Source: a virus
Lineage: Duplodnaviria > Heunggongvirae > Uroviricota > Caudoviricetes
Length of the DNA: 41,465 nt
Direction: 5' to 3' (one strand)
IMG/VR virus record: IMGVR_UViG_2917881069_000006
Made by a program: the position numbers and the translations under genes. This document shows positions 319-41,465 of this stretch, one piece after another. Position 1 is the stretch's first letter. Each line of letters begins with the position of its first letter. The notes below the pieces were generated by a model. That model made no database searches. It saw only the letters and a program-made list of their open reading frames with translations, and had not been told where the DNA came from.

Positions 319-330
319 GGCCCCTTAATA

Positions 331-1372
331 TTATTTAGACGCAAGCGCCGCCTCAATTGCAGATAATCTTTGTCTTAATTCTGCGTTTTCTTCTTCCAGT
401 GCTGTTATTCTGTCGTCTGACTCTCTGGCTACCTGAACAAGCAAGCCAGTAACACCAGAATAATCTACTGTGTAGTAACGCTCGCCTTCTTCCCCTTCCG
501 AGCCGTTTCCACCGTCCTGATATTTCATTGCGGAGCCTACAACTTCCGGGATTGCTTCCAGAGCTTCCTGTGCAATGACACCTGCATAGGGCATACCGTT
601 TTCCTTAAGGGTATAGGTATAGCCGTTCATCTTGCGGATACGATCTGTTGCATTATCAATCACCTGAAGATTATCTTTCAGATCCCGGTCGGAAGCCTGG
701 TTAAAGGCGGTGGCATGACATGCACCATTAACAGCGAACGCATAGGTATTATCGGTTTGTTTCTGACCGTAGAACATATAAGCGCCACCATCAACACCGA
801 CTTCATAAACAACAGGACGGCTGGAGTTGCCCCACAATTTAGCAGTAACACCAGCATAAGCGGTTCCCTGTGTGTTTAATGTCATGGTTGACCCATGATT
901 AGCGTATTTGATTTGTAATGTGTCTGTGTAGTCAAACTTAATAAGCGCGTTACTTCCCCGCACACCATACGACATGAGACAGTTCCCCATCTTAAGGTAA
1001 CCATCACTGCCTGGAAAAATTAATGTTCCGCCGTAAAGATTACTAAAGTCCCACCAAATACCCTTTTCGCCATCTTTTACGTGTAGTCGCGCCATTGCAG
1101 CTTCATCGCCTGCAACATTTTTTTCGGGTATAAAACTCAGTATATACATCGATTTTATCGGCAGTCTTATGAATTGAACGATGTTTACCACCAAAGACAG
1201 TACCAGTTGTCGGCAAGGTATTATCTTTTTTGGTAGCATCCCAATCACCTAAAACCTCGCGTTTACCATCAACATAGGATTTTGTTGCGTAGCTTTCTTG
1301 ATCGGTTTTTAATTTACTAACATCGGATTTTAGCGTTTTGATGTCATCAGGAATTACTGTTACGCTCGCCAT
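331..1372 (-). pseudogene. tail fiber protein with C-terminal intramolecular-chaperone (peptidase S74-like) domain; frame broken at an A7 run
   Basis: Protein-like N-terminal frame (MASVTVIPDD...TVFGG...DVYTEFYTR; RBS GAGGGG before ATG at 1372) stops just after the homopolymer at 1118-1124 (T7 on plus, A7 on minus). The adjacent frame continues KNVAGDEAAMARLHVKDG... to a C-terminus with S74-chaperone-like signature (SDRDLKDN...YTVDYSGVTGLL...ALEEENAELRQRL). Span is 1042 nt (3n+1); A6 would give one ORF of about 346 aa. Confidence 0.5.
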
Positions 1373-1382
1373 GTATTGCCCC

Positions 1383-1661
1383 TCAAGCCCATTCACGAAG
1401 CGGAGCATCAAGAATCACTACATTTCCGGAAAATGGTGATGCGTCCAGCTTTTCATCTAAGATTCTAATATTTACAAAATAACCGTCGCGTCGTTGATAA
1501 ATTGGTTCGTCGTCGGCAGTTCTGCCGACTTCATCGAAAGCGAATCCAATTTCATCAATCAGGAGTTGATCTTGCAATACTTCGTTATCTTCCCAATTAA
1601 TTTCATTCAAGAATGCTTTATAGTCTTCCCGATCTCGAAATTTCAGTGTTAAATCTTTCAT
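1383..1661 (-). CDS. hypothetical protein, translationally coupled to stf (possible fiber assembly or accessory protein)
   Basis: 92-aa ORF; its ATG overlaps the stf stop codon (ATGA junction at 1658-1661); acidic protein, no recognisable motif. Confidence 0.4.
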   Translation of the reverse strand: MKDLTLKFRDREDYKAFLNEINWEDNEVLQDQLLIDEIGFAFDEVGRTADDEPIYQRRDGYFVNIRILDEKLDASPFSGNVVILDAPLREWA

Positions 1662-3738: not shown

Positions 3739-3796
3739 TCCACAAAAAAGCCCGCCTGAACCGGCGGGCTGTCATAACACTGTGTTACCTGGCTAA

Positions 3797-4396: not shown

Positions 4397-4463
4397 AATT
4401 ACCTCTCGCTTTTCTGCAATAAAAAAGGCGCCATTTCTGGCGCCCGTATTTGGGTTATAAAAT

Positions 4464-7862: not shown

Positions 7863-7922
7863 TCCTCACGCTCCATAAACGACAAAACCGCCCGGAGGCG
7901 GTTTCACATAAAACATTTTGCA

Positions 7923-9235: not shown

Positions 9236-9240
9236 GGGAT

Positions 9241-9939
9241 TTACTGCGAAAGTTTGTTAATGGAAAGGAAGCCGCCAAAGTTGCCGACGTTATTGCGAAA
9301 CTTACAGCCACTCAGGCATTTGCTGCATTTATCCTTCGTGATATCGGACGTCGGCTGGTCATATTCATCCGCGACAGCCGGACCATTATAACCGCACTCA
9401 TCACCGCGATAGGTCCAGGTGCAGGTGTTGGCCAGCATGATGCGCCCCGGAAAAACGGCACCATCCGTTTCCGTCGGTGTGGACAACACAAAGGAGGCAC
9501 TGACCGCGCTCAATTCGCTGCACTGCTCGATGCGCCAGCGGCTAATCACCTCCTGCTCCGGATCGGCGTCGCTGTTTCCGTTGACGAAGTTCACCGCATC
9601 CAGAAAACGGGCATAAACCTTACGCCTGACCACCGTTCCGCCGACCAGACTCTGCAGATCTTCCGCCATCCCGGTGACCATGCCATACAGGTTAGAAACC
9701 GTCAGCGTGGGGCGCGTACTGGTGCCTTTGCCATTCAGTTCGAAACCACTCCCCTGAATGGGATACGCCTGATACTGCCGCCCCTGCCAGGTGACCGGCT
9801 CACCTTTTTCGTTCTGCTCATTACAGAAAAAATAACGTTCTCCATCGACCTCTGTCAGATCGATCTCCCAGAGCACCACGCTGGCCGACTGCTCCGCACG
9901 GGTGCATTCATTCAGTGTTTCCTGCCGGATATCCTGCAT
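9241..9939 (-). CDS. L: tail tip protein L
   Basis: 232 aa, MQDIRQETLNECTRAEQSA..., lambda L-like with C-terminal Cys cluster; stop/start junction with M. Confidence 0.9.
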   Translation of the reverse strand: MQDIRQETLNECTRAEQSASVVLWEIDLTEVDGERYFFCNEQNEKGEPVTWQGRQYQAYPIQGSGFELNGKGTSTRPTLTVSNLYGMVTGMAEDLQSLVGGTVVRRKVYARFLDAVNFVNGNSDADPEQEVISRWRIEQCSELSAVSASFVLSTPTETDGAVFPGRIMLANTCTWTYRGDECGYNGPAVADEYDQPTSDITKDKCSKCLSGCKFRNNVGNFGGFLSINKLSQ

Positions 9940-10268
9940 CAGTTCACCACCTGTTTAAACTCTGCGCTGAACTCAACACGCAACATACTGACCCGCGACG
10001 TCCATTTTGCGCAGGTCACCTTTATCTGCCGCCAGTCATAAGGCGGCGTCCACAGAAAGGCTTTCCAGCCTCCGTGCTCTGCCAGAAACGATTCCAGCGC
10101 CGTGGCCTCCCAACGGGGGACAGAAATCGTCACGCTGTACGTTTTCAGGTTGGCATTCAGCCCGGCAGGCGCGCGCTGGGAGTAACCATCACCAAAGCGC
10201 ACCTCCCTGACGGAAGGAGCCGAAGCCACATCCATACCCGGTTTCACTTTCCAGCGGAAGGTTTTCAT
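9939..10268 (-). CDS. M: tail tip protein M
   Basis: 109 aa, same length and position as lambda M. Confidence 0.9.
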   Translation of the reverse strand: MKTFRWKVKPGMDVASAPSVREVRFGDGYSQRAPAGLNANLKTYSVTISVPRWEATALESFLAEHGGWKAFLWTPPYDWRQIKVTCAKWTSRVSMLRVEFSAEFKQVVN

Positions 10269-12826: not shown

Positions 12827-13253
12827 ACCGGACTCCTCCTGCGATCCCTTCTGATACTGTCATCAGCATTACGTCATCCTCCGTCATGTCCGCCACATCC
12901 GGGGAAGCGGGGATAACTTTATTCCCGTCCGGACCAAAGCGGACGCCTCCGGCAAGCCCTGCCGCTTTCTGCATCAGCACATCATCTTCAGGCTCTTCGT
13001 CAGCCTCACACCGATTCAGCAGACTGAAATCCAGCGGATGCATCTCCGGATCGCTGAAAAACAGGCTGAGCACGGTGTACGTCAGCCCGGAAAAGTGCAT
13101 ATCCAGCAGAACATCATGAAAATAATGGGTACTGTAAAAACGGTGCCAGTCGGCATACTCCGTGGATGACATCCCGGCAAGCATGGCGCGCCAGTCGGGT
13201 CGCCCCATCTCACGCGCCAGTTTCAGGGCAAAACTCAGCTCACCGTCGAACAC
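12819..13253 (-). CDS. T: tail assembly chaperone T segment, expressed as G-T fusion by -1 frameshift
   Basis: ORF FDGELSFALKLAREMGRPDW... has no ATG start (the track start is GTG inside the slippery site); lies in the -1 frame relative to G immediately after GGGAAAG. Confidence 0.85.
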   Translation of the reverse strand: MFDGELSFALKLAREMGRPDWRAMLAGMSSTEYADWHRFYSTHYFHDVLLDMHFSGLTYTVLSLFFSDPEMHPLDFSLLNRCEADEEPEDDVLMQKAAGLAGGVRFGPDGNKVIPASPDVADMTEDDVMLMTVSEGIAGGVRYG

Positions 13254-13648
13254 TTTCCCGCAGAAACAGGCTCTGCAGGCCCGGCGTCCTCTGCCTGTTC
13301 AGGGGCATTATTCACCACAAACTCATACATACCGGACAGCCGGTACACCACGTTTTCAGCATGAGAAATTGCCTCTGTGGGCCAGGTGGTAAGCACTTCC
13401 TGCTCAATCTGTTTAACGGCTTCATTCATGGACGGCATCTGCGTCTTCTTCGGATGGTTATGCCACAGAGACATCGCCACCACAAAAGCGCCGGTTCTGA
13501 TGACGTCTTCCACAGTAAACTTCCGGTTACTGTCGGATTCTGCCTGCTGTTTCATCAGGGCGAGATGCTCAATACGCTGCAGGGCTGACAGTTCAGAAAG
13601 CGTGACGGTCACGCCGTTATATTCAAATGATTCGGTTTTCAGGAACAT
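13235..13648 (-). CDS. G: tail assembly chaperone G
   Basis: 137 aa, MFLKTESFEYNGVTVTLSELSALQRIEHL..., lambda G-like; contains the slippery site near its 3' end. Confidence 0.9.
   Translation of the reverse strand: MFLKTESFEYNGVTVTLSELSALQRIEHLALMKQQAESDSNRKFTVEDVIRTGAFVVAMSLWHNHPKKTQMPSMNEAVKQIEQEVLTTWPTEAISHAENVVYRLSGMYEFVVNNAPEQAEDAGPAEPVSAGKCSTVS
13253..13259 (-). promoter_or_regulatory. programmed -1 ribosomal frameshift slippery heptamer G GGA AAG (G to G-T)
   Basis: Plus strand ctttccc at 13253-13259 is GGGAAAG on the coding strand, 18 nt before the G stop; downstream -1 frame is the T ORF. Confidence 0.75.
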
Positions 13649-13663
13649 CGCTGACTCTCCGGA

Positions 13664-14404
13664 TTAACTGGCGGTGACGGTGATTTCTGCAACCGCAGCA
13701 AACTCACCATTACCGGATACAACCGGAATGTTGACCTTGCCTGCAGCAACGCCGTTCACGGTGATAGTCATACCACTGACCGACACGGTGGCTTTTGTTT
13801 TATCCGCAGACACCGCACGGAAGCTCTTGTCGGTTACACCTTCCGGCTGGAATGCCACGGTCAGCGTGGTGCTCTGCCCTTTCACTACAGAAGCACTGGC
13901 TGGCGTTACCGTCATGCCGGTTGCTGCCGTCACCGTACTGCGATCTTCAGCCATCGACGGGCGTCCCACATTGGTGACCTTCACCGTGCGGGTGATCACT
14001 TCCTTCGCCGTCACCGCTTTACCGATACTGCTGACCCAGCCACGGAACACATCGACCGTGCCGTTCGGGAAGCGGATTTTATAGGCACGGGTATCACCTT
14101 CATTAAACCACGCCAGCAGCGCCTGCTGCCCCTGCTCTCCGGGCATCCACGCCAGCGTGAAGCTGGTATCTCCGGCTGATTTCTGCCCCTGCCCGGTCGC
14201 AGTCCAGTCCGCATCTTCATCATCGAGATAGCTGTCGTCATAGGACTCAGCGGTCAGTTCGCCGGGCGTCAGGTCTTTAACTTTTGCCAGACGCGACCAG
14301 TCAACGTCTGAAAGCGGGTTCGCATAAGGGTCACCGTTCCCCTTATAAACCCACAGTGTGGTCCCGGCACCTTTCACCGGCATTACTGGATTTGGTACAG
14401 GCAT
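13664..14404 (-). CDS. V: major tail protein V
   Basis: ORF track gives 13664-14434; lambda-type start [22 protein letters not shown] at 14404 gives 246 aa; C-terminal Ig-like region. Confidence 0.92.
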
Positions 14405-14411
14405 ATCGTCC

Positions 14412-14807
14412 TCACATTTCATAGGTAATGACATAAGTCAGATCGGCTGAACTCCACAGGCCCGCATCATCGTCGCGTCGGTAGTCATAGCCACTGGCCA
14501 CCATACTGGTGATCAAATCTGACAGTGCCGGAATATCGCTCATCACCGGATAAATCCGGGACTCCATCCACGAATCCAGCTCTGAATCCGGCACCTGAGC
14601 AGGCAGGAAAACTTCAATATGCAGCTCCGCCTGCCAGGTATCGCTGTCCAGCTCTTCGCCCGTGTATTCAGCGCCGGTGAGATAAACGGCAATTGCCGGA
14701 AAATCTTCCTCATCAAAAACAGCGGGGCGACCATCAAAAAGCGTCGCCCCGGTGTCATGCTTCTCCAGTGCATCCAGTACGGCTGCACGGAGTTCAGTAT
14801 GTTTCAT
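14412..14807 (-). CDS. U: tail terminator protein U
   Basis: 131 aa, [26 protein letters not shown]..., lambda U-like; 4-nt overlap with Z. Confidence 0.9.
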
Positions 14808-15382
14808 CGCTTTATTACCATTCTCAGTTGATGCTGCAGCGCATAGCCCAGCTCTTTCGGAAGACGCTCACGCCGTATCCGTTCAATATTCTGTTTAAAT
14901 GCCGTGGTCAGCGGCACCGCCATCGGGATTTTCACCACATCAATGGGGTAACGGTTTTTCCCGGCCACACGCTGCATGACATGCCACCGGCCATTTTTCA
15001 GTTGCTGAATAAACGCGCCGGGAATACGACGGTTACCCACCACAAGCACGCTGCCGCCACCTTTCAGGGCTGAACGCTGCCCCTTTTTACGACGCCTGCG
15101 GCGGGACAGGACAACCCGCGCGTTACCCAGCTTGATTACGGGCAAATCCCCCCGGTTAACCTTGATTCTGGCCTGCGGATTTTTAACCGTGGCCCTTTTC
15201 AGCCAGGCCCTTTCCTTTACCAGTTTCCGGCGTACCTTTGTCTCACGGGCAACCTGTGACGCCGACTGCGATATCGCGGATGAAGCAACGCGGTTAATGG
15301 CCATTGCGGCGGCACCAGGCACCGCCGTTTTGCTGATACGGCTGAGGTTTTCAACGGCCTGCTCAAGACCTTTTATGGCCAT
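14804..15382 (-). CDS. Z: tail completion protein Z
   Basis: 192 aa, lambda Z-like, basic RRRRRKKGQRS stretch. Confidence 0.9.
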   Translation of the reverse strand: MAIKGLEQAVENLSRISKTAVPGAAAMAINRVASSAISQSASQVARETKVRRKLVKERAWLKRATVKNPQARIKVNRGDLPVIKLGNARVVLSRRRRRKKGQRSALKGGGSVLVVGNRRIPGAFIQQLKNGRWHVMQRVAGKNRYPIDVVKIPMAVPLTTAFKQNIERIRRERLPKELGYALQHQLRMVIKR

Positions 15383-15393
15383 ACATCCCCCTT

Positions 15394-15747
15394 TCAGCGG
15401 CGACGGTTAACTGCAGGCGGTACCCCCCGCCCAAGCCAGAGATGACAGCTTCCGCCATCATCCGGCGTAACCCGATCTACCCAGAAGTTTTCCTCACCGA
15501 TGGTCAGTGTGTCTCCGCGCCGCAGCTGCTGCACATCATCAGTCCGGACAAACAGGGACGGGCTGGAGCCTTCAACGCGCACGCCCTGTCCGGCATAGCT
15601 GATATTTTCAGGGTCATCAAAAACACCACGTATCACAGCACCGGACTGCTCACCGGATGTAATGGTGGCTGACGTTCCCATGTACCCGCGTATCGTTTCA
15701 TCGGCGCGGGCAATGGCGGCATCGAACAGGTTATCGAAATCAGCCAC
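15394..15747 (-). CDS. FII: head-tail joining protein FII
   Basis: 117 aa, MADFDNLFDAAIARADETIRGYMG..., lambda FII-like. Confidence 0.9.
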   Translation of the reverse strand: MADFDNLFDAAIARADETIRGYMGTSATITSGEQSGAVIRGVFDDPENISYAGQGVRVEGSSPSLFVRTDDVQQLRRGDTLTIGEENFWVDRVTPDDGGSCHLWLGRGVPPAVNRRR

Positions 15748-15758
15748 AGCGCCTCCCG

Positions 15759-16154
15759 TTATTGCATTCTGGCCAGGCCACGTTCTGTCATTTCAGCTGC
15801 CATACCGGCAGAGACACGAAACGCCGTTCCCGGCAGCACAAATGCCACAGGTTCATCCCGCGTGGCGTGAAGTGCATCAGTATGCAGCGTCACCAGTGCC
15901 ACGACCGTGACCAGAGCAGCCGTATCAATCATGGTATCCGGCTGCGCTGATACCACCTCATTTTCATGTCCGGTCAGCGCATTTTCCGGTCTGAGAGGGG
16001 TATCCTGACCGGCAGCGTCATCCGTGTCATCAAGCTCCTCTTCCAGCTCTGCCACACGGAGCGCCAGTTCTTCTTTCGTCCCCGTCAGGCTGACATCACG
16101 GTTCAGTTGCTCACCCAGCGACCGGAGACGGACAATCAGTTCATCTTTCGTCAT
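15759..16154 (-). CDS. FI: DNA packaging accessory protein FI
   Basis: ORF track 15759-16193; lambda-type start MTKDELIVRLRSLGEQLNRD at 16154 gives 131 aa. Confidence 0.88.
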   Translation of the reverse strand: MTKDELIVRLRSLGEQLNRDVSLTGTKEELALRVAELEEELDDTDDAAGQDTPLRPENALTGHENEVVSAQPDTMIDTAALVTVVALVTLHTDALHATRDEPVAFVLPGTAFRVSAGMAAEMTERGLARMQ

Positions 16155-16195
16155 GGACTCCTCCACAGAGAGAAAATGGCCCCGAAGGGCCACGA

Positions 16196-17221
16196 TTACG
16201 CCAGTTGTACGGACACGAACTCATCAGGGTCAGCCAGCAGCATCAGCGGTGCTGACTGAATCATGGTGAACTCACGCGCCGGATCGCCGGTGGTCACCCA
16301 GTTTTTCGGGTAACGGGCAGAGGCGTTAATGCCTTCGCGCTGTGCGTCCGCATCCTGAATGCAGCCATAGGTGCGCAGACCGCGTGCCTGAGTGTTCCCC
16401 AGTACCATCGTGTTGTCCGGCAGGAAGTTCTTTTTGACGCCGTTTTCCACGTACTGTCCGGAATACACGACGATGGCCACATCGCCATACATCCCCTTAT
16501 AGGACACCGCTTTACCCAGGTCTTTCACCGCTGTCTCCAGCTCGGAATGAGAGCCGCGACGGGTATCCAGCTTCTCCTTGACGGCTTTGAAGGAACGGAA
16601 CAGCGCCCAGCCTTTCGGATCAAACACGATGATATTCACCACACCGCTGGCGTTCAGCGCGTAGGCTTCGATATCATCGGTCGGGTCATACGTGGACTTG
16701 TCGCGCTTGCTCCACTCCGTGCCACCGGACTGTGTGATGTTGTTCGCCGCACTGCGCCCCATATCCACCTCAACCGGATCAAAGGCTTCACCGGTCATGG
16801 TGTATTTGCCCTTAAGCACGGCAGAAACTGCCTGCATCTCTTCGACCTGGGCAATGGCCAGCTCTTCATCACGCATGTTCTGCATGATGATGCGACGGCG
16901 GCGGTAAGCCGGGTCCGCCAGATTCTGCGGATCTTCATCCGGCAGGCGACGCAGGGTCATCTGCGGATTCACCTCATGCTTCGGCTTGACATATCCCGGC
17001 GTAAATTCAGAGGTGGAGCCGCCACGGGAACGGATAACCTCACCGGAAACAATCGGCGAAACGTACAGCGCCATGTTTACCAGTCCCGGAATTTGTGAGA
17101 GATAGACTTTCTCCGTGGTGAAGGGATAGCTCTCACGGAAAAAGAGACGCAGAAACAGCGGATCAAACTTAAATTTCTGCTCATTTGCCGCCAGCAGCTG
17201 GGCGGTTGTGTACATCGACAT
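16196..17221 (-). CDS. E: major capsid protein E
   Basis: ORF track 16196-17248; start MSMYTTAQLLAANEQKFKFDP at 17221 gives 341 aa as in lambda E. Confidence 0.95.
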   Translation of the reverse strand: MSMYTTAQLLAANEQKFKFDPLFLRLFFRESYPFTTEKVYLSQIPGLVNMALYVSPIVSGEVIRSRGGSTSEFTPGYVKPKHEVNPQMTLRRLPDEDPQNLADPAYRRRRIIMQNMRDEELAIAQVEEMQAVSAVLKGKYTMTGEAFDPVEVDMGRSAANNITQSGGTEWSKRDKSTYDPTDDIEAYALNASGVVNIIVFDPKGWALFRSFKAVKEKLDTRRGSHSELETAVKDLGKAVSYKGMYGDVAIVVYSGQYVENGVKKNFLPDNTMVLGNTQARGLRTYGCIQDADAQREGINASARYPKNWVTTGDPAREFTMIQSAPLMLLADPDEFVSVQLA

Positions 17222-17276
17222 AAAAAAATCCCGTAAAAAAAGCCGCACAGGCGGCCTTTAGTGATGAAGGGTAAGG

Positions 17277-17609
17277 TTAAACGATGCTGATTGCCGTTCC
17301 GGCAAACGCGGTCCGTTTTTTCGTCTCGTCGCTGGCAGCCTCCGGCCAGAGCACATCCTCATAACGGAACGTGCCGGACTTGTAGAACGTCAGCGTGGTG
17401 CTGGTCTGGTCAGCAGCAACCGCAAGAATGCCAACAGCAGCACCGTCGGTGGTGCCATCCCACGCAACCAGCTTACGGGTGGAGGTGTCCAGCATCAGTG
17501 GGGTCATTGCAGGCGCTTTCGCACTCAATCCGCCGGGCGCGGTTGCGGTATGAGCCGGGTCACTATTGCCCAGCGGCTGGTAATGGGTAAAGGTTTCTTT
17601 GCTCGTCAT
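17277..17609 (-). CDS. D: head decoration protein D
   Basis: [27 protein letters not shown]..., 110 aa, lambda D-like. Confidence 0.95.
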
Positions 17610-17618
17610 AAACATCCC

Positions 17619-18224
17619 TTACACTGGTGTGTTCAGCAAATCATTAACGGCATCAGATGCCGGGTTACCTGCAGCCAGCGGTGCCGGTGCCCCCTGCATC
17701 AGACGATCCAGCGCAGTGTCACTGCGCGCCTGTGCACTCTGTGGTGCTGCGGCCAGAATGCGGCGGGCCGTTTCCACGGTCATACCGGGGGTTTCTGCCA
17801 GCACGCGTGCCTGTTCTTCGCGTCCGTGAGCCTCCTCACAGTTGAGGATCCCCATAATGCGGCTGTTTTCTGCCGCAACCGCTGCGGTGATCTGCGCGTT
17901 CACGTCCGGCTGCGCCGCGCTGGCGTTTTCGCCCTCCGTCGCTGGCACCACGTCAGTAACGTCAGCCTGCGAAGCAGTGGCTGAAACAGTTGTTGATTGA
18001 GTCTCTTTGGTCATTCGCCCTCCTGAGAGACGGGATTTACGTGCATCCAGTGCATCACGCATAACGGTGATCGCATCGGTGCTGTTGACAAGTTCATCAG
18101 CCAGTCCGGCATCAATGGCCTCCTGACCGCTGTACACTGCAGCCTCGGTATCCAGCACAGCCTGCACGGACAGGCCGGTATATGCCGACACCTTCTGCGC
18201 AAACATCTGGCGGGTTGCATCCAT
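17619..18224 (-). CDS. nu3: scaffolding protein Nu3 (in-frame internal start within C)
   Basis: Internal Met (MDATRQMFAQKV...) at the position where lambda Nu3 starts, giving the 201-codon C-terminal nested product; inferred from lambda organisation. Confidence 0.6.
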   Translation of the reverse strand: MDATRQMFAQKVSAYTGLSVQAVLDTEAAVYSGQEAIDAGLADELVNSTDAITVMRDALDARKSRLSGGRMTKETQSTTVSATASQADVTDVVPATEGENASAAQPDVNAQITAAVAAENSRIMGILNCEEAHGREEQARVLAETPGMTVETARRILAAAPQSAQARSDTALDRLMQGAPAPLAAGNPASDAVNDLLNTPV

Positions 18225-23179: not shown

Positions 23180-23365
23180 ACAAAACAGAGAAAGGAAACG
23201 ACAGAGGCCAAAAAGCCCGTTTTCAGCACCTGTCGTTTCCTTTCTTTTCAGGGGGTGTTTTAAATAAAAACATTAAGTTACGGCGAAGAAGAACGGAAAC
23301 GCCTTAAACCGGAAAATTTTCATAAATAGCGAAAACCCGCGCGCCTTCCGCCCCGTAACGCTCCG
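23180..23365 (-). other. cos packaging site (cosB with cosN core near 23335-23360)
   Basis: Sequence upstream of nu1 closely resembles the lambda left end from memory (CGCGGGTTTTCGCTATTTATGAAAATTTTCCGGTTTAAGGCGTTTCCGTTCTTCTTCG on the minus strand); the cohesive-end core reads GGGCGGAAGGCG instead of the remembered GGGCGGCGACCT. Confidence 0.6.
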
Positions 23366-23612: not shown

Positions 23613-23990
23613 ATCTACCTCAAAGCAATAAAAGAAATGCGTGCGGCCACGGTCGCACAGACCTGAATACACGTCCTGTTTCTTCCACCCCCGCACAGGA
23701 CTGGCGAGCATGAGGGACAACCCCGCGAATCATAAACGCGGTAAAAACCCGGTGTGCATCGTTTTTGATTATTCCCGCACACTCGCGCAGAAGGAGTTCC
23801 CCGTCGGGCTACGGTCATGGTTAATGCGGGAATACAGCGACGATACAGCGCATGATGTGTCAGGCTTGAATACCTTTATCGAATCCCGGTAACGAATTCT
23901 CCTGACGTTCCAGTCAGGTGATGATATGCATGGTGAGATTCAGATATGAAAAAGCCCCGCTAAAAGCGAGGCCATAAATCACTTAATATC

Positions 23991-24365
23991 TTATTGAGGA
24001 CGCTGGAGTAATCCGTGCTGAGCGAGAGTTAGAGCAATGTCATAAGACCCTTGCCTGTCTTTATAGCAAGTTTTATCAACTAGCTCAGCTTTGCTAATTC
24101 CGGGTAAATCAAGAATCAGATTCGCAACTTCAATTGCCCTTTGGTACAACTTACCGATCTTTTTCTCCCCATGATGTGGTTTTACATTCTTCAGATAACC
24201 GCTATCCGCCAGAGCGAGAAACGTTGCCCTTGGGCATCCCTTCTTTCTTGCCGATTCGCTTTCTGTAACCTCAGCGACAGCAGCATCCCATGCATCACGC
24301 GGGGATATTGAATTATCAGCAACCAAATAATAAGCAATTAAAGCGGCGCGCGCGTATTGAGACAT
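23991..24365 (-). CDS. hypothetical protein (moron position between spanin genes and cos)
   Basis: 124-aa ORF from MSQYARAALIAYYLVADNSISPRDAWDAAVAEV...; same strand as lysis genes; imperfect stem-loop plus T-run just downstream (about 23945-23975); no family recognised. Confidence 0.5.
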   Translation of the reverse strand: MSQYARAALIAYYLVADNSISPRDAWDAAVAEVTESESARKKGCPRATFLALADSGYLKNVKPHHGEKKIGKLYQRAIEVANLILDLPGISKAELVDKTCYKDRQGSYDIALTLAQHGLLQRPQ

Positions 24366-24403
24366 AATGCATCCATATACAAAAATCTTATGATAAGACT
24401 TTT

Positions 24404-32648: not shown

Positions 32649-32727
32649 CATTCAATATATTTGCCCCAAGCATTATATGCTGGGGCATGTAATTATATGA
32701 CCATTGATAATTCCATTTTGTAAATAT

Positions 32728-33039
32728 TTAGGTTGTCATCAATGATAGTGCGTTTACTTTTCCATACACAGCCAACACTCGTTTCATCGCGACACTCTGG
32801 CGACACTCTTGGAAAATCAGGTTCGTGCTCACCTTCCCTTCCCGTTCTTCCCTAGTAGCGAACCGGTAATACACCGTTCGCCAGACCTTACCATCAATGA
32901 CTAAGATTCCTGCCCGCGCCATTTTAGCCGCAGCCTGATTTATGCTGGTTACTGTTGCGCCTGTTAGCGCGGCAACGTCCGGCGCACAGAAGCTATTATG
33001 CGTCCCCAGGTAATGAATAATTGCCTCTTTGCCCGTCAT
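32728..33039 (-). CDS. ren: Ren protein
   Basis: MTGKEAIIHYLGTHNSFCAPDVAALTGATVTSINQAAAKMARAGILVIDGKVWRTVYYRFATREEREGK..., lambda Ren-like; ATG overlaps P stop. Confidence 0.85.
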   Translation of the reverse strand: MTGKEAIIHYLGTHNSFCAPDVAALTGATVTSINQAAAKMARAGILVIDGKVWRTVYYRFATREEREGKVSTNLIFQECRQSVAMKRVLAVYGKVNALSLMTT

Positions 33040-33737
33040 ACACATGCTCCTTTCAGTCCGAACTTAGCTTTAATTTCTGCGATCTTCGCCAGAGCCTGTG
33101 CACGATTTAGAGGTCTACCGCCCATGACAGGAAGTTGTTTTACTGGTTCAGGTATAGCCTCACCACGGTTAATTCGCGCTGTCATACAGGTCAGTTCATC
33201 GGCAGCCTTACGCCGTAATTCCGCGTCAGTCAGCGCATTGGCCCGCATGTTCTGGTACAGGTTGGTAACCAGCCAGTAGTGCGCGTTTGATTTCCACGGA
33301 TAAGACTCTGCATCCGGATACAGGCCACGCTTCCGGCAATACTCATAAACCATATCAACCAGCTCGCTGACGTTTGGCAGCCCGGCGTTAACGGACGCTT
33401 CTTCCCGGCACCAGGCGACAAACTGCCCAGGTGATGGCAGGAACGGTCGATTCTGCCGACGGGCTACGCGCATTCCTGCGTTAACCTGCTCCATCGTGGT
33501 GATCCCGTTTTCCCGGAAAGCCAGAACCCACTGGCGGCGGATTTCGTTCAGTTCGTTCTGGTCACGGTTAGCCAGGCTCGCCGGGAAAGTTGCCAGTAAC
33601 TGGCTGAATACACCGTTGATTATCTGCGCCACCTGCTGTACCTGCGGCTTTTCGTCGTACTGTTCCGGCATATTGTTGGCGATCCGGCGCATCTGCTCAC
33701 GGTCAAAATTAATCATCTGTGCGGCGATGTTTTTCAT
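33036..33737 (-). CDS. P: replication protein P (DnaB helicase loader)
   Basis: 233 aa, MKNIAAQMINFDREQMRRIANNMPEQYDEKPQVQQVAQIINGVFSQLLATF..., lambda P-like. Confidence 0.93.
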   Translation of the reverse strand: MKNIAAQMINFDREQMRRIANNMPEQYDEKPQVQQVAQIINGVFSQLLATFPASLANRDQNELNEIRRQWVLAFRENGITTMEQVNAGMRVARRQNRPFLPSPGQFVAWCREEASVNAGLPNVSELVDMVYEYCRKRGLYPDAESYPWKSNAHYWLVTNLYQNMRANALTDAELRRKAADELTCMTARINRGEAIPEPVKQLPVMGGRPLNRAQALAKIAEIKAKFGLKGACV

Positions 33738-34663
33738 AGCTCCACCCCGTAAATCCAGTCAGTGTTCGTCAGGTCGAGTTTTAGTTTGCCAGCTGTCACG
33801 CCAGCCTGCTGCTTGTTTCGGTTGATTTCGAGCTGTGTCCACTTATCGCGGAGTTTGGCCGGACACAACACGTTACCGGACCAGAAGTTGTCCTGGCATG
33901 CCCAGCGGAACAGCACGCACATGTCGCGGTGGTTACGTCCGTCACGTTCACGCATCAGGCGGATATCGTTAGCCCACCCTGCAAAATTCGGTTTTCTAGC
34001 TGATGGCGCGATGGTCTTCACCATGTCAAACATCCACTCTGCGGCGGTCAGGTCTTCTGCTGTCCCCCACTTGCTGCCGCTCTGAATTGCAGCATTCGGT
34101 TTCTCCACAGGAAGATCGTTTTCTGGCTGGTCAGAGGATTCGCCAGAATTCTCGGACGAAAAAGGTTTTATATTGTCTTTTGTTAGTTTGTCTTTTGTGT
34201 TTACCTGATTCGGGTAAACGCCTTTACCTGATTTAGGTAAACTTTTCTTACCTGATTCAGATAAATTTACCTCTTTCAGGTAAACTTTATTTTTCTTACC
34301 TGATTCGGGTAATGTTGACCATTCACTGACCACATTATTGATGCCGATATTCCGCCCGCTCTGAATTAAAATCCCACGCTTTACCAGAACACTTTTTGCA
34401 GCAGAACACTTGTGCGGCAATATCCCGGTTAACTCGGAAAGTTGCTCGTTGCTCACCCAATCCAGTTTTTTATTAAAGCCATATGTTTTGCGCATGACAG
34501 CCAGGAAGACCAGAAGCTGGTGCTGTGTTAATCCGGCCAGCATTACAACTTCCAGCAACTCATTTGCAATGCGCGTATAACCATCATCGAGATCTGCCAC
34601 GCGCGGCTCCTTTTGTGCCACATCCGGCACTGGAAAATTGAATATCTCAGCAGTGTTTGCCAT
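33734..34663 (-). CDS. O: replication initiator O (non-lambda iteron-binding N-terminal domain, lambda-like C-terminal domain)
   Basis: 309 aa from MANTAEIFNF... (RBS GGGAGGA); contains the iteron array; C-terminal part resembles the P-interacting domain of lambda O. Confidence 0.85.
   Translation of the reverse strand: MANTAEIFNFPVPDVAQKEPRVADLDDGYTRIANELLEVVMLAGLTQHQLLVFLAVMRKTYGFNKKLDWVSNEQLSELTGILPHKCSAAKSVLVKRGILIQSGRNIGINNVVSEWSTLPESGKKNKVYLKEVNLSESGKKSLPKSGKGVYPNQVNTKDKLTKDNIKPFSSENSGESSDQPENDLPVEKPNAAIQSGSKWGTAEDLTAAEWMFDMVKTIAPSARKPNFAGWANDIRLMRERDGRNHRDMCVLFRWACQDNFWSGNVLCPAKLRDKWTQLEINRNKQQAGVTAGKLKLDLTNTDWIYGVEL
34201..34314. repeat. replication origin iterons (five copies of an ~19-bp palindromic unit) with adjacent AT-rich segment
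   Basis: TTACCTGATTCGGGTAAAC, TTACCTGATTTAGGTAAAC, TTACCTGATTCAGATAAAT, TTACCTCTTTCAGGTAAAC, TTACCTGATTCGGGTAATG at 34201-34314 inside the O coding region; AT-rich stretch at 34150-34200. Confidence 0.8.
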
Positions 34664-34749
34664 AATTCCTCCCGCAATGAGTGCGTTACGATTTGCACCT
34701 GAAAGTCGGTTCTGTTCCCGCAGACCGACTTTCGCCATTTCTGAACCTG

Positions 34750-35289
34750 TCATATTGCCCCCAGCATGGTGGTAACCATCGCCATTAATGGACCAGCCAG
34801 ATCCGGGTCCACACGAAACATCGACACAATACCTTCACTCATTTCCTTCAGTTTCTGGTGGCGTGGTGCGTTGAGAATGACCGCCTGCTTTGCCTCACTG
34901 AGTTCCTTTTCCATTTCAGCCAGCCGAGCCATGAAGCTATCCTGCTCAACCAGGTGGCCGCGATATTCCAGCGGTAGTACCGCCAGAATTGCCGGGGTCA
35001 GTTCACGCACGTTATTTCGGTATTTTTCAGAATCGAATTTGTTATCGAGGAAGCGGAACAACTTCTGGCGTGCACGGCTGACATCATCAGGGAAATCGAT
35101 GGTGCCGCCGCCCAGCTCCCGATACTCATTCACAATGAGTGCGGCAACAACATCCTGATTATCTGCAGCCGACCAGGCGCGAACGGCATCACGGATTTTT
35201 TCGTGGCCTGGCGCCTGTTTTGTTTGAGAACGATTTATCACCGCAGTCGGGGTAAATCCGCTAGTCTGTTGGTATGTAATTGGTTGCAT
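34750..35289 (-). CDS. CII-like regulatory protein (phage CP76-type CII)
   Basis: 179-aa ORF in the cII position between cro-like and O, RBS AAGGA; family assignment from memory of the CP76-type CII proteins. Confidence 0.55.
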   Translation of the reverse strand: MQPITYQQTSGFTPTAVINRSQTKQAPGHEKIRDAVRAWSAADNQDVVAALIVNEYRELGGGTIDFPDDVSRARQKLFRFLDNKFDSEKYRNNVRELTPAILAVLPLEYRGHLVEQDSFMARLAEMEKELSEAKQAVILNAPRHQKLKEMSEGIVSMFRVDPDLAGPLMAMVTTMLGAI

Positions 35290-35370
35290 AATTGATTCCT
35301 TTAGTTTGAATTGACTGTTAATCAGTCTGTTAAGTTGATTGCTTATTGTTAAAGAGCGTGAAATGGAAAT

Positions 35371-35601
35371 TTAAGCTGCGTTCTTTTCGGTGTGTGGAAA
35401 CAACTTCGGAAGATCCGGGCGAATCTGGTATGCCTTCACAACTCCACCAGTAGCCGTAACAATGCTGCCGACATGTTCAGGGGATACCTTTGCTTTGTTG
35501 TGAAGCCACTTATAGACGGCCTGCTGTGAAACTTCGCAGGCATCGCCCAGTTTCTTTTGTGAACCAACTATATTGATCGCTGTTTTGATTGCTGGGTTCA
35601 T
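35371..35601 (-). CDS. Cro-like HTH regulator
   Basis: 76 aa, HTH QKKLGDACEVSQQAVYKWLH; RBS GGAGG; divergent from the CI-like gene. Confidence 0.7.
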   Translation of the reverse strand: MNPAIKTAINIVGSQKKLGDACEVSQQAVYKWLHNKAKVSPEHVGSIVTATGGVVKAYQIRPDLPKLFPHTEKNAA

Positions 35602-35705
35602 AACAACCTCCGTGGTTAATCTGAACCAAGATTAAAACTATGGTTGTTTTTAGTCAACAACCATTTTCGTTTGATGGAATAAAACCTTGGTTGTACATTT
35701 GGTCT
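35602..35705. promoter_or_regulatory. immunity-region operator/promoter segment between the cro-like and cI-like genes
   Basis: Palindromes with GTTGTT/AACAAC and TGGTT/AACCA half-sites, e.g. ATGGTTGTT-n7-AACAACCAT (35640-35664) and TGGTTAATCTGAACCA (35613-35628). Confidence 0.6.
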
Positions 35706-36395
35706 ATGAAAACAACACTCTCAGAAAGACTTAAAGAAGCCAGATCAGCGCGAGGCCTTACACAAAAGGCACTTGGGGATTTGGTTGGGGTTAGCCAGGC
35801 TGCTATTCAGAAAATCGAAACAGGGAAAGCTAACCAAACAACTAAAATCGTGGAGATCGCGAACGCTTTGGGTGTGCGCGCAGAATGGTTATCTTCTGGC
35901 ATTGGAAATATGTCAGACAGTACAGTGCAACCAATACAATCAACTCTCAGCCATTCCAAATACTTCAAGATTGACGTTCTTGATATAGAAGTCAGTGCTG
36001 GGCCGGGAGTCATCAACCGTGAGTTTGTAGAAGTTCTACGCTCGGTTGAGTACTCGTTTGACGATGCTCGTCACATGTTCGATGGTAGGAAGGCGGAAAA
36101 TATCCGCATCATTAACGTGCGTGGTGACAGCATGTCAGGAACTATCGAACCAGGTGATCTGCTGTTCGTTGATATCACTGTTAAATCTTTCGACGGTGAT
36201 GGTATCTATGCGTTTCTGTACGACGACACAGCCCATGTAAAGCGCCTGCAAATGATGAAGGATAAGCTGCTGGTCATCTCTGATAACAAAAGCTACTCAC
36301 CGTGGGACCCGATCGAGAAAGACGAGATGAACCGGGTGTTCATCTTCGGTAAGGTTATTGGGAGCATGCCGCAGACATATAGGAAGCATGGGTAG
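35706..36395 (+). CDS. CI-like repressor (HTH_XRE N-terminal domain, LexA-type S24 peptidase C-terminal domain)
   Basis: From MKTTLSERLKEARSARGLTQKALGDLVGVSQAAIQKIETGK...; C-terminal GDSM (Ser) and downstream Lys of the S24 autocleavage domain. Confidence 0.85.
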   Translation: MKTTLSERLKEARSARGLTQKALGDLVGVSQAAIQKIETGKANQTTKIVEIANALGVRAEWLSSGIGNMSDSTVQPIQSTLSHSKYFKIDVLDIEVSAGPGVINREFVEVLRSVEYSFDDARHMFDGRKAENIRIINVRGDSMSGTIEPGDLLFVDITVKSFDGDGIYAFLYDDTAHVKRLQMMKDKLLVISDNKSYSPWDPIEKDEMNRVFIFGKVIGSMPQTYRKHG

Positions 36396-36516
36396 TACCA
36401 ATTAAAAATTATCAACTGGGCATTGTGCTCATTCAGTAAAGAACTAATTCCTATCTTTGCTCTAGGTAGTAATATTAAGCCACCGCAATAATATCTTTAC
36501 CTAACGGCGTAAGAAT

Positions 36517-36544
36517 CCCGGTCACCGTGCCGGGTTTTCTTTTG
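36517..36544 (+). terminator. intrinsic terminator downstream of the cI-like gene
   Basis: Stem CCCGG-tcaccgtg-CCGGG followed by TTTTCTTTT. Confidence 0.65.
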
Positions 36545-36988
36545 CCCTCCCCTCATCACACACACCGTTAAAAAAACCACCATAACCTCGCTTCAGTTAT
36601 CGCTATGCGATTCAAGTCACAAAATAAATCCATCCTAAATACAACCAGTTATATCTAAAACAACCAATAAAACAACTTTTGTTGTTGACGATAAAACAAC
36701 TATAGTTTTAAATAAGTTCATCGCAACAACACAACGATACGGCAACCACCTGATTCACCGTTGCGATGACCGCTTAGATCCGCAGCTTGAATTTCAGCAG
36801 GCTCCGGGGAGTGCGAGGGGTGAAACGGACGCGTGAACGTCGGTGTGACCAGCTGAAATCAACTCAACACCTCATACCTCAGTCGCTTCAACAAGGCGGC
36901 TTAGTTATGACAACCGGCGGCCATCCACCGCCAGATACTGCGCAACCCCTCATTTGTTCAGCAGCCCAGCTTACGGGCAGGAGTTTTT

Positions 36989-37195
36989 ATGGTTCATCAA
37001 CATTACGGAACGCAGACCGTTAATCGCGGTGCGGTCATGCCAGGAATGCTGGTCAAACACAAAGATGGTACCTGGACAGCATCAGCTAATTTACGCGGAC
37101 GGCTTTATCTGCATCGCGGCATCGAGCGCACTTATACCCGTGACTTGCTCGTGGAAGTTTTTCTTGACGGACGCGGCAACGGCCTGAATCACTAA
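36989..37195 (+). CDS. hypothetical protein immediately upstream of gam
   Basis: 68-aa ORF with strong RBS AGGAG 5 nt before ATG (MVHQHYGTQTVNRGAVMPGMLVKHKDGTW...); no family recognised. Confidence 0.45.
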   Translation: MVHQHYGTQTVNRGAVMPGMLVKHKDGTWTASANLRGRLYLHRGIERTYTRDLLVEVFLDGRGNGLNH

Positions 37196-37270
37196 TCCCC
37201 TTTCCTGTTTTTCTAATCAGCCTGGCATTTCGCTGGCGATATTTTCACAGCCATTTTCAGGAGTTCAGCC

Positions 37271-37567
37271 ATGAACGCTTATTACATTCAGGATCGTCTT
37301 GAGGCACAGAGCTGGGTGCGTCACTACCAGCAGATCGCCCGTGAAGAGAAAGAGGCAGAACTGGCAGACGACATGGAAAAAGGTCTGCCCCAGCACCTGT
37401 TTGAATCGCTATGCATCGATCATTTGCAACGCCACGGGGTCAGCAAAAAAGCCATTACCCGTGCGTTTGATGACGATGTTGAGTTTCAGGAGCGCATGGC
37501 AGAACACATCCGGTACATGGTTGAAACCATTGCTCACCACCAGGTTGATATTGATTCAGAGGTATAA
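37271..37567 (+). CDS. gam: Gam (RecBCD inhibitor), short GamS form
   Basis: 98 aa, [47 protein letters not shown]...; the upstream in-frame extension is closed by a stop at 37214-37216. Confidence 0.9.
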
Positions 37568-37572
37568 AACGA

Positions 37573-38358
37573 ATGAGTACTGCACTCGCAACGCTGGCAG
37601 GGAAGCTGGCTGAACGTGTTGGCATGGATTCTGTCGACCCACAGGAGCTGATCACCACTCTTCGCCAGACGGCATTTAAAGGTGATGCCAGCGATGCGCA
37701 GTTCATCGCATTGCTGATCGTCGCCAACCAATACGGCCTTAATCCGTGGACGAAAGAAATTTACGCCTTCCCTGATAAGCAGAACGGCATCGTTCCGGTG
37801 GTGGGCGTTGATGGCTGGTCCCGCATCATCAACGAAAACCAGCAGTTTGACGGCATGGACTTTGAACAGGACAACGAATCCTGCACATGCCGGATTTACC
37901 GCAAAGACCGCAATCATCCGATCTGCGTTACCGAGTGGATGGATGAATGCCGCCGCGAACCATTCAAAACCCGCGAAGGCAGAGAAATCACGGGGCCGTG
38001 GCAGTCGCATCCCAAACGGATGTTACGGCATAAAGCCATGATTCAGTGTGCCCGTCTCGCCTTCGGATTTGCTGGTATCTATGACAAGGATGAAGCCGAG
38101 CGCATTGTCGAAAATACCGCATACACTGCAGAACGTCAGCCGGAACGCGACATCACTCCGGTTAACGATGAAACCATGCAGGAGATTAACACTCTGCTGA
38201 TCGCCCTGGATAAAACATGGGATGACGACTTATTGCCGCTCTGTTCCCAGATATTTCGCCGCGACATTCGCGCATCGTCAGAACTGACACAGGCCGAAGC
38301 AGTGAAAGCTCTTGGATTCCTGAAACAGAAAGCCACTGAGCAGAAGGTGGCAGCATGA
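37573..38358 (+). CDS. bet: Bet (Red-beta single-strand annealing protein)
   Basis: 261 aa, [59 protein letters not shown]..., lambda Bet-like. Confidence 0.95.
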
Positions 38359-39035
38359 CACCGGACATTATCCTGCAGCGTACCGGGATCGACGTGAGAG
38401 CTGTCGAACAGGGGGATGATGCATGGCACAAATTACGGCTCGGCGTCATCACCGCTTCAGAAGTTCACAACGTGATAGCAAAGCCCCGCACAGGAAAGAA
38501 GTGGCCTGACATGAAAATGTCCTACTTCCACACCCTGCTGGCTGAGGTTTGCACCGGTGTGGCTCCGGAAGTTAATGCTAAGGCGCTGGCATGGGGAAAA
38601 CAGTACGAGAACGACGCCAGAACTCTGTTTGAATTCACTTCCGGCGTGAATGTTACTGAATCCCCGATCATCTATCGCGACGAAAGTATGCGCACCGCCT
38701 GCTCTCCCGATGGTTTATGCAGTGACGGCAATGGCCTTGAGCTGAAATGCCCGTTTACCTCCCGGGATTTCATGAAGTTCCGGCTCGGTGGTTTCGAGGC
38801 CATAAAGTCGGCTTACATGGCCCAGGTGCAGTACAGCATGTGGGTGACACGAAAAGATGCCTGGTACTTTGCCAACTATGACCCGCGTATGAAGCGTGAA
38901 GGACTGCATTATGTCGTGGTTGAGCGGGATGAAAAGTACATGGCGAGTTTTGACGAGATGGTGCCGGAGTTCATCGAAAAAATGGACGAGGCACTGGCTG
39001 AAATTGGTTTTGTATTTGGGGAGCAATGGCGATGA
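38355..39035 (+). CDS. exo: Exo (lambda exonuclease, 5'-3' dsDNA exonuclease)
   Basis: 226 aa, [40 protein letters not shown]..., lambda Exo-like. Confidence 0.95.
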
Positions 39036-39190
39036 CGCATCCTCACGATAATATCCGGGTAGGCGCGATCACTTTCGTCTACTCCGTTACAAAGCGAGGC
39101 TGGGTATTTCCCGGCCTTTCTGTTATCAGAAATCCACTGAAAGCACAGCGGCTGGCTGAGGAGATAAATAATAAACGGGGGGCTGTATGA
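39032..39190 (+). CDS. small ORF downstream of exo (lambda orf60a-like)
   Basis: 52 aa, [56 protein letters not shown] junction with exo stop and with the methylase start. Confidence 0.5.
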
Positions 39191-39744
39191 CTGATTTCAC
39201 CGGAAGCAATACTCCTGCCGAACATCGCGACAGCTGGCGCACACCACCAGAGATTTTTGCTGCGCTTAATGCAGAGTTCGTTTTTCAACTTGATGCTGCA
39301 GCCAGCGAAAAAAACCGACTATGTCGGCTTTTTATCTCACAGGAGCAGAACACATTAACCACTTCATGGCCTGAAGCAATGGGATATGCCTCTGGTTATG
39401 TCTGGTTGAATCCACCATACAGCAATATTTCCCCTTTTGTGAAAAAGGCAGCCACTGAAAACAAATTCAGTAGTGTGGGATGTGTAATGTTATTGCCTGC
39501 TGACACATCTGTCGGATGGTTTCATGAAGCGATACAAACCGCCAGTGAGGTCAGATTCATCACGGCAGGACGACTGGCATTTATTAACCCACTCACCGGG
39601 AAACCCGTCAGTGGAAATAATAAAGGCTCGATGCTCATTATCTGGCACCCATACCCCCGTACACACTGCCACTTTACGACCGTTGATCGTGGAGAGTTGA
39701 TGGCGTTCGGCTCAAGGATTCTTGCCCGTCGGGAGGCTGCATGA
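39187..39744 (+). CDS. phage DNA N6-adenine methyltransferase (Dam-like)
   Basis: 185 aa with NPPY catalytic motif (VWLNPPYSN) and upstream SAM-binding-like region. Confidence 0.8.
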   Translation: MTDFTGSNTPAEHRDSWRTPPEIFAALNAEFVFQLDAAASEKNRLCRLFISQEQNTLTTSWPEAMGYASGYVWLNPPYSNISPFVKKAATENKFSSVGCVMLLPADTSVGWFHEAIQTASEVRFITAGRLAFINPLTGKPVSGNNKGSMLIIWHPYPRTHCHFTTVDRGELMAFGSRILARREAA

Positions 39745-39824
39745 CAACCACGGAATACATTTTTCTGGCAGCGGGCTTCATATTCTGTGTGCTTATGCTT
39801 GCCGACATGGGACTTGTTCAATGA
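39741..39824 (+). CDS. 27-aa hydrophobic micro-ORF, translationally coupled
   Basis: MTTTEYIFLAAGFIFCVLMLADMGLVQ; ATG overlaps the methylase stop (ATGA) and its stop overlaps the next ATG (ATGA). Confidence 0.3.
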   Translation: MTTTEYIFLAAGFIFCVLMLADMGLVQ

Positions 39825-40036
39825 CACCTCAGCAGGAAAACGCCCTTCGCAGCATTGCCCGTCAGGCTAATTCTGAAATCAAAAAAGCCAGACAGCAGTT
39901 TCCGGATAAAAACGTCGATGACATTTGCCGTAGCGTACTGAAGAAGCACCGCGAAACGGTAACGCTGATGGGATTCACACCGACTCATTTAAGCCTGGCG
40001 ATCGGCATGTTAAACGGCGTCTTTAAGGAGCGATGA
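39821..40036 (+). CDS. hypothetical protein
   Basis: 71 aa from MTPQQENALRSIARQANSEIKKARQQFPDKN...; followed by a terminator. Confidence 0.45.
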   Translation: MTPQQENALRSIARQANSEIKKARQQFPDKNVDDICRSVLKKHRETVTLMGFTPTHLSLAIGMLNGVFKER

Positions 40037-40058
40037 ACATGAAAAGCAAAATCATCAG

Positions 40059-40079
40059 GGAGCTACAGGCTCCTTTTTT
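40059..40079 (+). terminator. intrinsic terminator
   Basis: Stem GGAGC-tacag-GCTCC followed by TTTTTT. Confidence 0.7.
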
Positions 40080-40134
40080 ATTATTCGCATTCACCCTCAA
40101 GCGTATTAACCAACAATTCAGGGATTAATGAAAG

Positions 40135-40353
40135 ATGGCAGACATCATTGATTCAGCATCAGAAATTGAAGAATTACAGCGCAATACAGCAATAAAAATG
40201 CGTCGTCTGAACCACCAGGCTATATCTGCCACTCATTGTTGTGAGTGTGGCGATCCCATAGATGAACGAAGACGCCTGGCCGTTCAGGGTTGTCGGACTT
40301 GTGCAAGTTGCCAGGAGGAGATCGAACTTAAGAACAAACAATGGGGATTGTGA
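40135..40353 (+). CDS. TraR/DksA-family C4 zinc-finger protein
   Basis: 72 aa; CCECGDPIDERRR...CRTCASC four-Cys motif. Confidence 0.75.
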   Translation: MADIIDSASEIEELQRNTAIKMRRLNHQAISATHCCECGDPIDERRRLAVQGCRTCASCQEEIELKNKQWGL

Positions 40354-40400
40354 TGGCCTCAAAGCAGCAAATTTCAACATCGTCCAACTGAGGTGTAAAA

Positions 40401-40679
40401 ATGTTCAGAATCATTTTTCCTAACACCTGGTACGTCGACCACCACGGCACTCCCTGCAAAATCCTGCGTTCTACCCACAACAAAGTTCACTACATCCGAA
40501 AAGGCAGAACATGTATCGCCAGCATGTTCCGCTTTAATCATGACTTTGAACCTGTGAATAAAGCTGATGCAGATCGGATAGCAGAAGAGATCGAAACGGC
40601 AGAACACATTAAGAAGTTACGTGACATGCGTTCAAAAAGCAGAGGTAACCATGGAATCATACAGCCTCACACTCGATGA
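40401..40679 (+). CDS. hypothetical protein
   Basis: 92-aa ORF with RBS GAGGTG; overlaps the xis-like start by 29 nt. Confidence 0.4.
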   Translation: MFRIIFPNTWYVDHHGTPCKILRSTHNKVHYIRKGRTCIASMFRFNHDFEPVNKADADRIAEEIETAEHIKKLRDMRSKSRGNHGIIQPHTR

Positions 40680-41022
40680 GGCCTGTCAGTTTCTCAAGAT
40701 ATCCAGACCTACCGCTACCAACTGGATACGAACAGGCCGCCTACAGGCAACACGCAAAGATCCCACTAAACCAAAATCTCCTTACCTCACAACACGGCAA
40801 GCCTGCATTGCGGCGCTTCAGTCTCCGCTGCATACTGTCCAGGTGAGCGCGGGTGATGGCATAACAGAGGAAAGAAAATGTCACTCTTCCGCAGAAATGA
40901 AATATGGTATGCCTCGTACTCGCTCCCGGGCGGGAAACGAATTAAGGAATCTCTTGGCACAAAGGACAAGCGGCAAGCTCAGGAGTTGCACGACAAGCGA
41001 AAAGCAGAACTCTGGCGAGTAG
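40651..41022 (+). CDS. xis: excisionase-like HTH protein (Xis/AlpA-like)
   Basis: From [36 protein letters not shown] (RBS GAGG); C-terminal extent uncertain, frame overlaps the int start by 145 nt. Confidence 0.6.
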
Positions 41023-41465
41023 AAAAGCTAGGGGATTTACCTGATGTCACTTTTGAAGAGGCCTGCCTAAGATGGCTTGAGGAAAAAGCTGATAAAAAAT
41101 CTCTCGATTCAGATAAAAGCCGGATTGAGTTCTGGCTTGAACATTTTGAGGGTATAAGGCTTAAAGATATCTCGGAGGCAAAGATTTACTCTGCTGTAAG
41201 CAGAATGCATAACAGAAAGACGAAAGAAATATGGAAACAGAAAGTTCAGGCCGCCATCAGGAAAGGTAAAGAACCGCCTGTTTATGAACCAAAGCCAGTA
41301 TCAACTCAGACAAAGGCAAAGCATCTTGCCATGATAAAGGCCATTCTCCGTGCTGCAGAACGCGACTGGAAGTGGCTGGAAAAAGCGCCTGTCATCAAGA
41401 TACCAGCGGTCAGAAACAAGCGAGTCAGATGGCTGGAAAAGGAGGAAGCAAAAACGCCTTATTGA
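40878..41465 (+). pseudogene. int: tyrosine integrase, N-terminal 195 codons only (reading frame ends in TGA at the window edge)
   Basis: [69 protein letters not shown]... is the N-terminal arm-binding/core-binding part of a lambdoid integrase (Rac IntR-like from memory); stop at 41463-41465; catalytic domain with R-K-H-R-H-Y residues not present. Confidence 0.7.

Follow-up and report, generated by a model that had tools for sequence, protein, structure and literature searches.

The apparent truncation of the integrase gene (int) at the right end of the window, i.e. the whole 41,465-nucleotide stretch of DNA analyzed here, is very probably an artefact and not the mark of a locked-in cryptic prophage. 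The latter was the reading preferred in the first-pass annotation of this DNA, and it is not supported by the intact continuation of the gene beyond the window and by an assembly built from Ion Torrent data only. The frame is interrupted by one surplus adenine, which is most likely an Ion Torrent homopolymer-length miscall absent from the real DNA, as we infer from the assembled sequence and its provenance. A miscall is favored because the downstream part of int is intact, the two att copies are exact, the allele with five adenines is unique, a host gene is broken as well, and Ion Torrent was the only platform used.

The integrase reading frame and the surplus adenine

The open reading frame (ORF) at the window end (40878-41465, plus strand) runs over 195 codons from an ATG start to a TGA stop at 41463-41465, exactly as the first-pass annotation had described it. 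Its residues 1-192 form a genuine integrase N-terminus, with 99.5% identity over 192 aa to the PhiR30_1 and T-HYM1 integrases by tblastn, and for this reason we regard the ORF as a genuine integrase gene and not as a chance ORF. Codons 1-192 (40878-41453, plus strand) constitute the authentic part and would correspond to the N-terminal arm-binding and core-binding part of a tyrosine integrase of the IntD/DLP12 type; judged by its sequence, int is assigned to the IntD/DLP12 group of argU integrases. The last three residues (T-P-Y, encoded by ACG-CCT-TAT) and the shift-made TGA stop (41454-41465, plus strand) result from a one-base insertion and lie out of frame. In the +1 frame, the same bases give CGC CTT ATT GA... 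(41455-41465, plus strand), that is R193-L194-I195-D196 of intact IntD, and the gene continues past the window edge.

The catalytic domain PF00589 occupies residues 184-355 of the 387-aa full-length IntD (E=5.5e-47 for the MB15 protein), and a shift at codon 193 therefore leaves almost nothing of it in the frame. Indeed, the 195-aa ORF gave no match to PF00589 (Phage_integrase catalytic domain), which bears out the earlier statement that the catalytic domain is absent from this frame, and none to the NCBIfam models; its sole Pfam match was a weak one, to DUF6538 at the N-terminus. Lambda Int is made of N-terminal arm-binding, core-binding, and C-terminal catalytic domains, and the break falls at the start of the catalytic domain; by analogy with this architecture, the 195-aa ORF would comprise the DNA-binding domains only. 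In an exact look-up of protein records, neither the 195-aa product nor a 596-aa fragment of the tape-measure gene H was on record, the source annotation calling no protein for the broken genes; the ORF of Q was not on record either, and the start codon used for it may be wrong. The J and O proteins, both intact, each had a record on one contig, PDIG01000005.1, which identified the source of the window.

Alignment to intD of Escherichia coli MB15 places the frameshift in a homopolymer of five adenines (A5) at 41450-41454 on the plus strand, 11 nt before the window end, where the window reads GC-AAAAA-CG and MB15 reads GC-AAAA-CG (A4). The rest of the last 166 nt is identical between the two, and the window int DNA is 99.4% identical to MB15 intD. 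The intact codons GCA AAA CGC CTT ATT GAT (A-K-R-L-I-D) are turned by the surplus base into GCA AAA ACG CCT TAT TGA (A-K-T-P-Y-stop). The final 11 bases of the window continue to track full-length intD, so no insertion or deletion is found there. Furthermore, the final 866 bases of the window align with annotated intD of many E. coli genomes at 99.0-99.4% identity, the subject being always one base shorter. A frameshift interrupting int just here, which had been offered as an alternative to a cryptic prophage, is thus what the sequence holds.

The four-adenine form is found in 118 of the 118 loci in a pile-up of all aligned loci, and the corresponding 30-mer is present in at least 120 IMG/VR contigs. 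The exact A5 30-mer had 0 matches in IMG/VR, in 185,579 species-representative (GTDB) genomes, and in JGI metagenomes. With a 200-nt query centered on A5, 1,699 records from complete E. coli genomes were at least 99% identical; A5 was present in none of them, and the best one (99.5%) differed by a single gap. These counts make the uniqueness of A5 look stronger as evidence than it is, since the prophage is a mosaic without a close sister in the collections, its closest relatives there showing 95-96% identity over most of its length.

Upstream of int and overlapping its start, a Xis-like ORF of the HTH_17 family (40651-41022, plus strand; Pfam E=4e-9) shares 145 nt with the int coding sequence, in a different frame. 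Its equivalents in E. coli relatives appear as a partial pseudogene in the RefSeq annotation, and the PhiR30_1 record annotates no gene in this stretch. From 39182 to 41450, the Xis-like ORF included, the window has zero indels relative to the isolated phage PhiR30_1.

The gene and the attachment sites beyond the window

The window is 100% identical to contig PDIG01000005.1 (352 kb; GCA_004745185.1, strain E2661) over the 35.6 kb compared (1-17862 and 23734-41465), and the sequence just beyond 41465, which the first-pass annotation had recommended examining, contains the remaining int domains in the +1 frame and, after them, argU and an att repeat. The contig reads on as TGAGTGCCCCGAACC... and encodes 195 more intact codons (RLIDEC...GIMEDIKKA, codons 193-387) with zero amino-acid changes, and then a stop. 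The whole gene extends from 40878 to 42042 on the plus strand (window numbering, as for the following features). When the surplus adenine is removed, the product is identical at 386 of 387 positions to the integrase of the isolated phage PhiR30_1, and this repaired Int matches Xer-type as well as integrase-type NCBIfam models; its similarity to solved structures is confined to the catalytic half (HP1 Int, XerC, XerD, and XerA).

The tRNA-Arg(TCT) gene argU (42058-42134) lies 15 nt after the int stop on the opposite strand, and folD follows about 290 nt after argU. An exact 75-bp direct repeat, made of the 3' end of int and the 3' end of argU, is found at 42028-42102 (right copy) and again some 2 kb to the left of the window, at -2097 to -2023 (left copy); the att core sought within the window is absent there, both copies lying outside. 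The prophage is therefore about 44 kb long with both att sites intact, and the window stops short of both its ends. In E2661, the fimZ-sfm fimbrial operon that E. coli carries between argU and folD is absent (L127 2250-2620), the gap holding only a remnant that resembles the 5' region of fimZ.

The coincidence of a stop codon with the window edge has a simple origin. Positions 1-3 of the window (TCA) are the stop codon of its first ORF (1-318, minus strand), which corresponds to the called gene at L126 17575..17862. Both window ends being gene ends, the cut was made at a gene-call boundary on either side, and the stop at the edge is no coincidence. Trimming of proviruses at gene-call boundaries usually gives records that start at the int stop. 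Among the matches listed, about half of 80 IMG/VR proviruses have the A4 pattern at 578-607 on the minus strand, which means that these records begin exactly at the int stop codon. Here, the last gene call was the artificial 195-codon ORF, so that the cut was made there. A circular permutation with int resuming at position 1 was considered and rejected, this position being the end of an unrelated minus-strand gene.

The following scenario most probably accounts for these features. An ordinary IntD (DLP12-type) tyrosine integrase would be encoded by a complete lambda-like prophage inserted at argU, and the A4 run at codons 191-193 would have been recorded as A5, shifting the frame into T-P-Y and TGA. 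The gene caller would then have seen a 195-codon ORF, and the prophage window would have been trimmed at the stop of that ORF, so that it excludes argU and the right att site together with the intact catalytic half of int. The same miscall would thus have cut the window 0.6 kb short of the true right end (the 3' half of int, att, and argU) and helped a probably complete prophage to look cryptic.

Companion indels and sequencing provenance

Six additional single-base indels break five other conserved genes of the window, all on the minus strand. A gene with a tail-fibre domain has one T too many in a T7 run (1118-1124) and is split into ORFs 331..1248 and 1103..1411, with a tblastn frame switch at about 1120; minus one T, it forms a single 360-codon open stretch, in agreement with E. 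coli N3, where one gene of 346 aa is found. In stf, the side tail fibre gene, a lone A at 3586 stands for the AA of relatives and shifts the frame. The tape-measure gene H carries two indels of opposite sign, an extra T at 10977-10982 (T6 for T5) and a missing G at 11087 (G for GG), and the out-of-frame stretch between them contains two stops, the first at 11036-11038; repair of both yields an 864-codon open stretch, comparable with the 853-aa H of PhiR30_1. No E. coli record exceeds 96.7% identity across this stretch of H (10977-11087). Furthermore, ylcG is frameshifted by one base missing in GGGAAA (27716-27721), and the recombinase gene ybcK has T5 at 29970-29974 against T4 in the T-HYM1 relative, an extra base with respect to both relatives that shifts the frame of the C-terminus. 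In-silico repair gave full-length ORFs for all four genes tried (the tail-fibre-domain gene, stf, H, and ybcK).

Two more indels are located in non-coding DNA, one at 23182-23185 upstream of nu1, with A4 against A5 in 11 relatives, and a single-base one at 31390-31393. The coding and non-coding indels alike are private to this sequence, and most of them fall in homopolymer runs. A G6 run at 39177-39182, before the methyltransferase start, was examined as a candidate insertion and rejected as natural allelic variation: two relatives have G5, and others carry 21-nt alleles of equal length (GGGAGG, GGGGAG). Between 36.5 and 41.4 kb the window also has 17 private substitutions, and the divergence of the prophage is genuine.

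[quoted passage not shown] Its cysS-folD flank is about 95% identical to E. coli, which fits a cryptic clade. The genome was sequenced by Ion Torrent only, with single-end reads of 35-400 nt at 40x coverage, and assembled with MIRA and SPAdes (PMC6639607). Assemblies of this kind are known for homopolymer-length errors that result in frameshifts and inflated pseudogene counts, adenine runs being the worst affected (PMC12046094). Beyond the left att site, in the approximately 9 kb of host flank that was inspected for assembly errors, the chromosomal gene ybcH (L126 21559-22450) is split into ORFs of 114 aa and 207 aa at a T7 run (L126 22150-22156), and deletion of one base of this run restores a 296-aa ORF. 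The ybcH break is evidence that homopolymer errors occur outside the prophage too.

The "other frame breaks" that the first-pass annotation had called consistent with a cryptic prophage do not support that reading, as they belong to the same class of single-base indels, which also affects the host gene ybcH. They bear the signature of the int frameshift and are probably Ion Torrent artefacts as well, in which case the prophage may be intact. Frame breaks in this window and in others from Ion Torrent-only assemblies should receive no biological reading without a read check, and the present case is a caution that one homopolymer miscall can make an intact integrase look truncated.

Competing explanations, known systems, and prophage make-up

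The enrichment of the indels in homopolymers is compatible with error and with real slippage alike, and the indel pattern alone fits decay as well as error; provenance is what separates the two. Against an artefact it may be said that real slippage mutations also favor homopolymers, that the indels at 3586 and 11087 are in two-base runs, where Ion Torrent errors are less usual, and that true point frameshifts are known in lambdoid prophages. The surplus adenine could be a genuine and very recent +1 slippage in E2661, in which case Int would lack its catalytic domain, the prophage would be grounded, and the other frameshifts would represent decay. The int frameshift and several ORF-breaking indels do stand in the deposited sequence; int, H, stf, and ybcK are without a called protein in the contig gene table, probably because they were treated as pseudogenes; and homopolymer slippage is a true mode of mutation. 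We nevertheless consider this explanation unlikely in view of data that are Ion Torrent only, of the like lesion in a host gene outside the prophage, of 195 downstream int codons without an amino-acid change, of att copies exact over 75 bp, and of an A5 allele seen nowhere else. Furthermore, the 44-kb prophage has no large deletion, IS element, or nonsense substitution, and it retains the full lambda gene order. An older, inherited lesion of int finds no support either, as A5 is not shared by related genomes in the collections searched and the downstream half of the gene and the att sites are undecayed. If the frameshift were real, it would represent routine prophage grounding by int inactivation. 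It is very improbable that A5 is real and that a stable 195-aa product, with the arm-binding and core-binding domains but no catalysis, is made from it, acting as a dominant-negative "anchor" on attL/attR that blocks excision by related integrases; if so, a flagellin-carrying prophage would be fixed in an environmental Escherichia clade II lineage.

Programmed recoding, either by +1 ribosomal frameshifting or by transcriptional slippage on the A run, would produce a short N-terminal protein together with full-length Int. Both halves of int are intact, and tRNA-Lys could in principle re-pair +1 on A-AAA-A; however, A5 is conserved in no relative and all homologues examined are single-frame with A4, functional phages encode int in one frame, and like indels affect unrelated genes. 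It is established that five adenines are too few for efficient transcriptional slippage. Recoding, effectively refuted by the non-conservation of A5, retains almost no probability in our view. The same is true of a physical truncation, by which a deletion, an IS insertion, a rearrangement, or a contig end would have removed the 3' half of int: nothing but the appearance within the window speaks for it, while just past 41465 the 352-kb contig, in which we found no IS element, deletion, or contig end at this place, runs on colinearly through full-length intD, argU, and folD. A miscalled run length remains the best explanation, and the truncation seen in the window is most probably no feature of the biology.

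IntD of the K-12 cryptic prophage DLP12 and the integrases of the lambdoid phages that use argU (PhiR30_1, Turner, ev243, and 2G7b) resemble the window int in sequence and in position: in these systems as here, 15 nt separate int from argU, the two genes are on opposite strands, and an att repeat overlaps the 3' end of argU. The arrangement of DLP12 at argU, with the 3' end of the tRNA gene duplicated at the far side of the prophage, has been described (PMC6379469). The present case departs from these systems in that A5 instead of A4 splits the deposited gene and that the host belongs to Escherichia cryptic clade II and not to E. coli. Homopolymer errors of Ion Torrent (and 454) sequencing agree with our observations in the platform, in the single A added to an A run, and in the scatter of similar indels over unrelated genes, a chromosomal one included; the two companion indels in runs of only 2 bases differ from the typical error. 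Grounded or defective lambdoid prophages, such as the cryptic ones of K-12, are similar insofar as the deposited sequence shows an interrupted int and breaks in several structural genes. However, large deletions, IS insertions, and decayed att sites are typical of such prophages (PMC6379469, and partly established knowledge), whereas the present one keeps a complete gene order and exact att copies and carries no lesions but single-base indels.

The gene order is of the complete lambda type when compared with phage PhiR30_1 and with the prophages of E. coli N3 and T-HYM1, and most prophage proteins are 92-100% identical to those of relatives, with lower values in the divergent modules kil, cro, Rz, lom, and the immunity repressor. 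The gene ylcJ carries a stop. Between the tail-fibre genes and the att site, a gene for a 429-aa flagellin (Flagellin_N/C) and a DinI gene are found (L126 17917-19726, window approximately -1863 to -54); they appear to be prophage cargo left out by the trimming of the window, and our literature search on prophage-borne flagellin at argU returned nothing useful. Between Q and the lysis genes (25778-26445), the porin (nmpC/ompD) of relatives is absent; a small zinc-finger ORF (25778-25948) and, on the minus strand, a CspA-family cold-shock gene (26230-26445) are located there. DLP12-type relatives carry emrE between ybcK and ren. The prophage lacks this gene (window 31400-32750), and an emrE-like gene of 110 aa lies just outside the left att site (L126 20210-20542), possibly left behind by an element that had occupied the site earlier.
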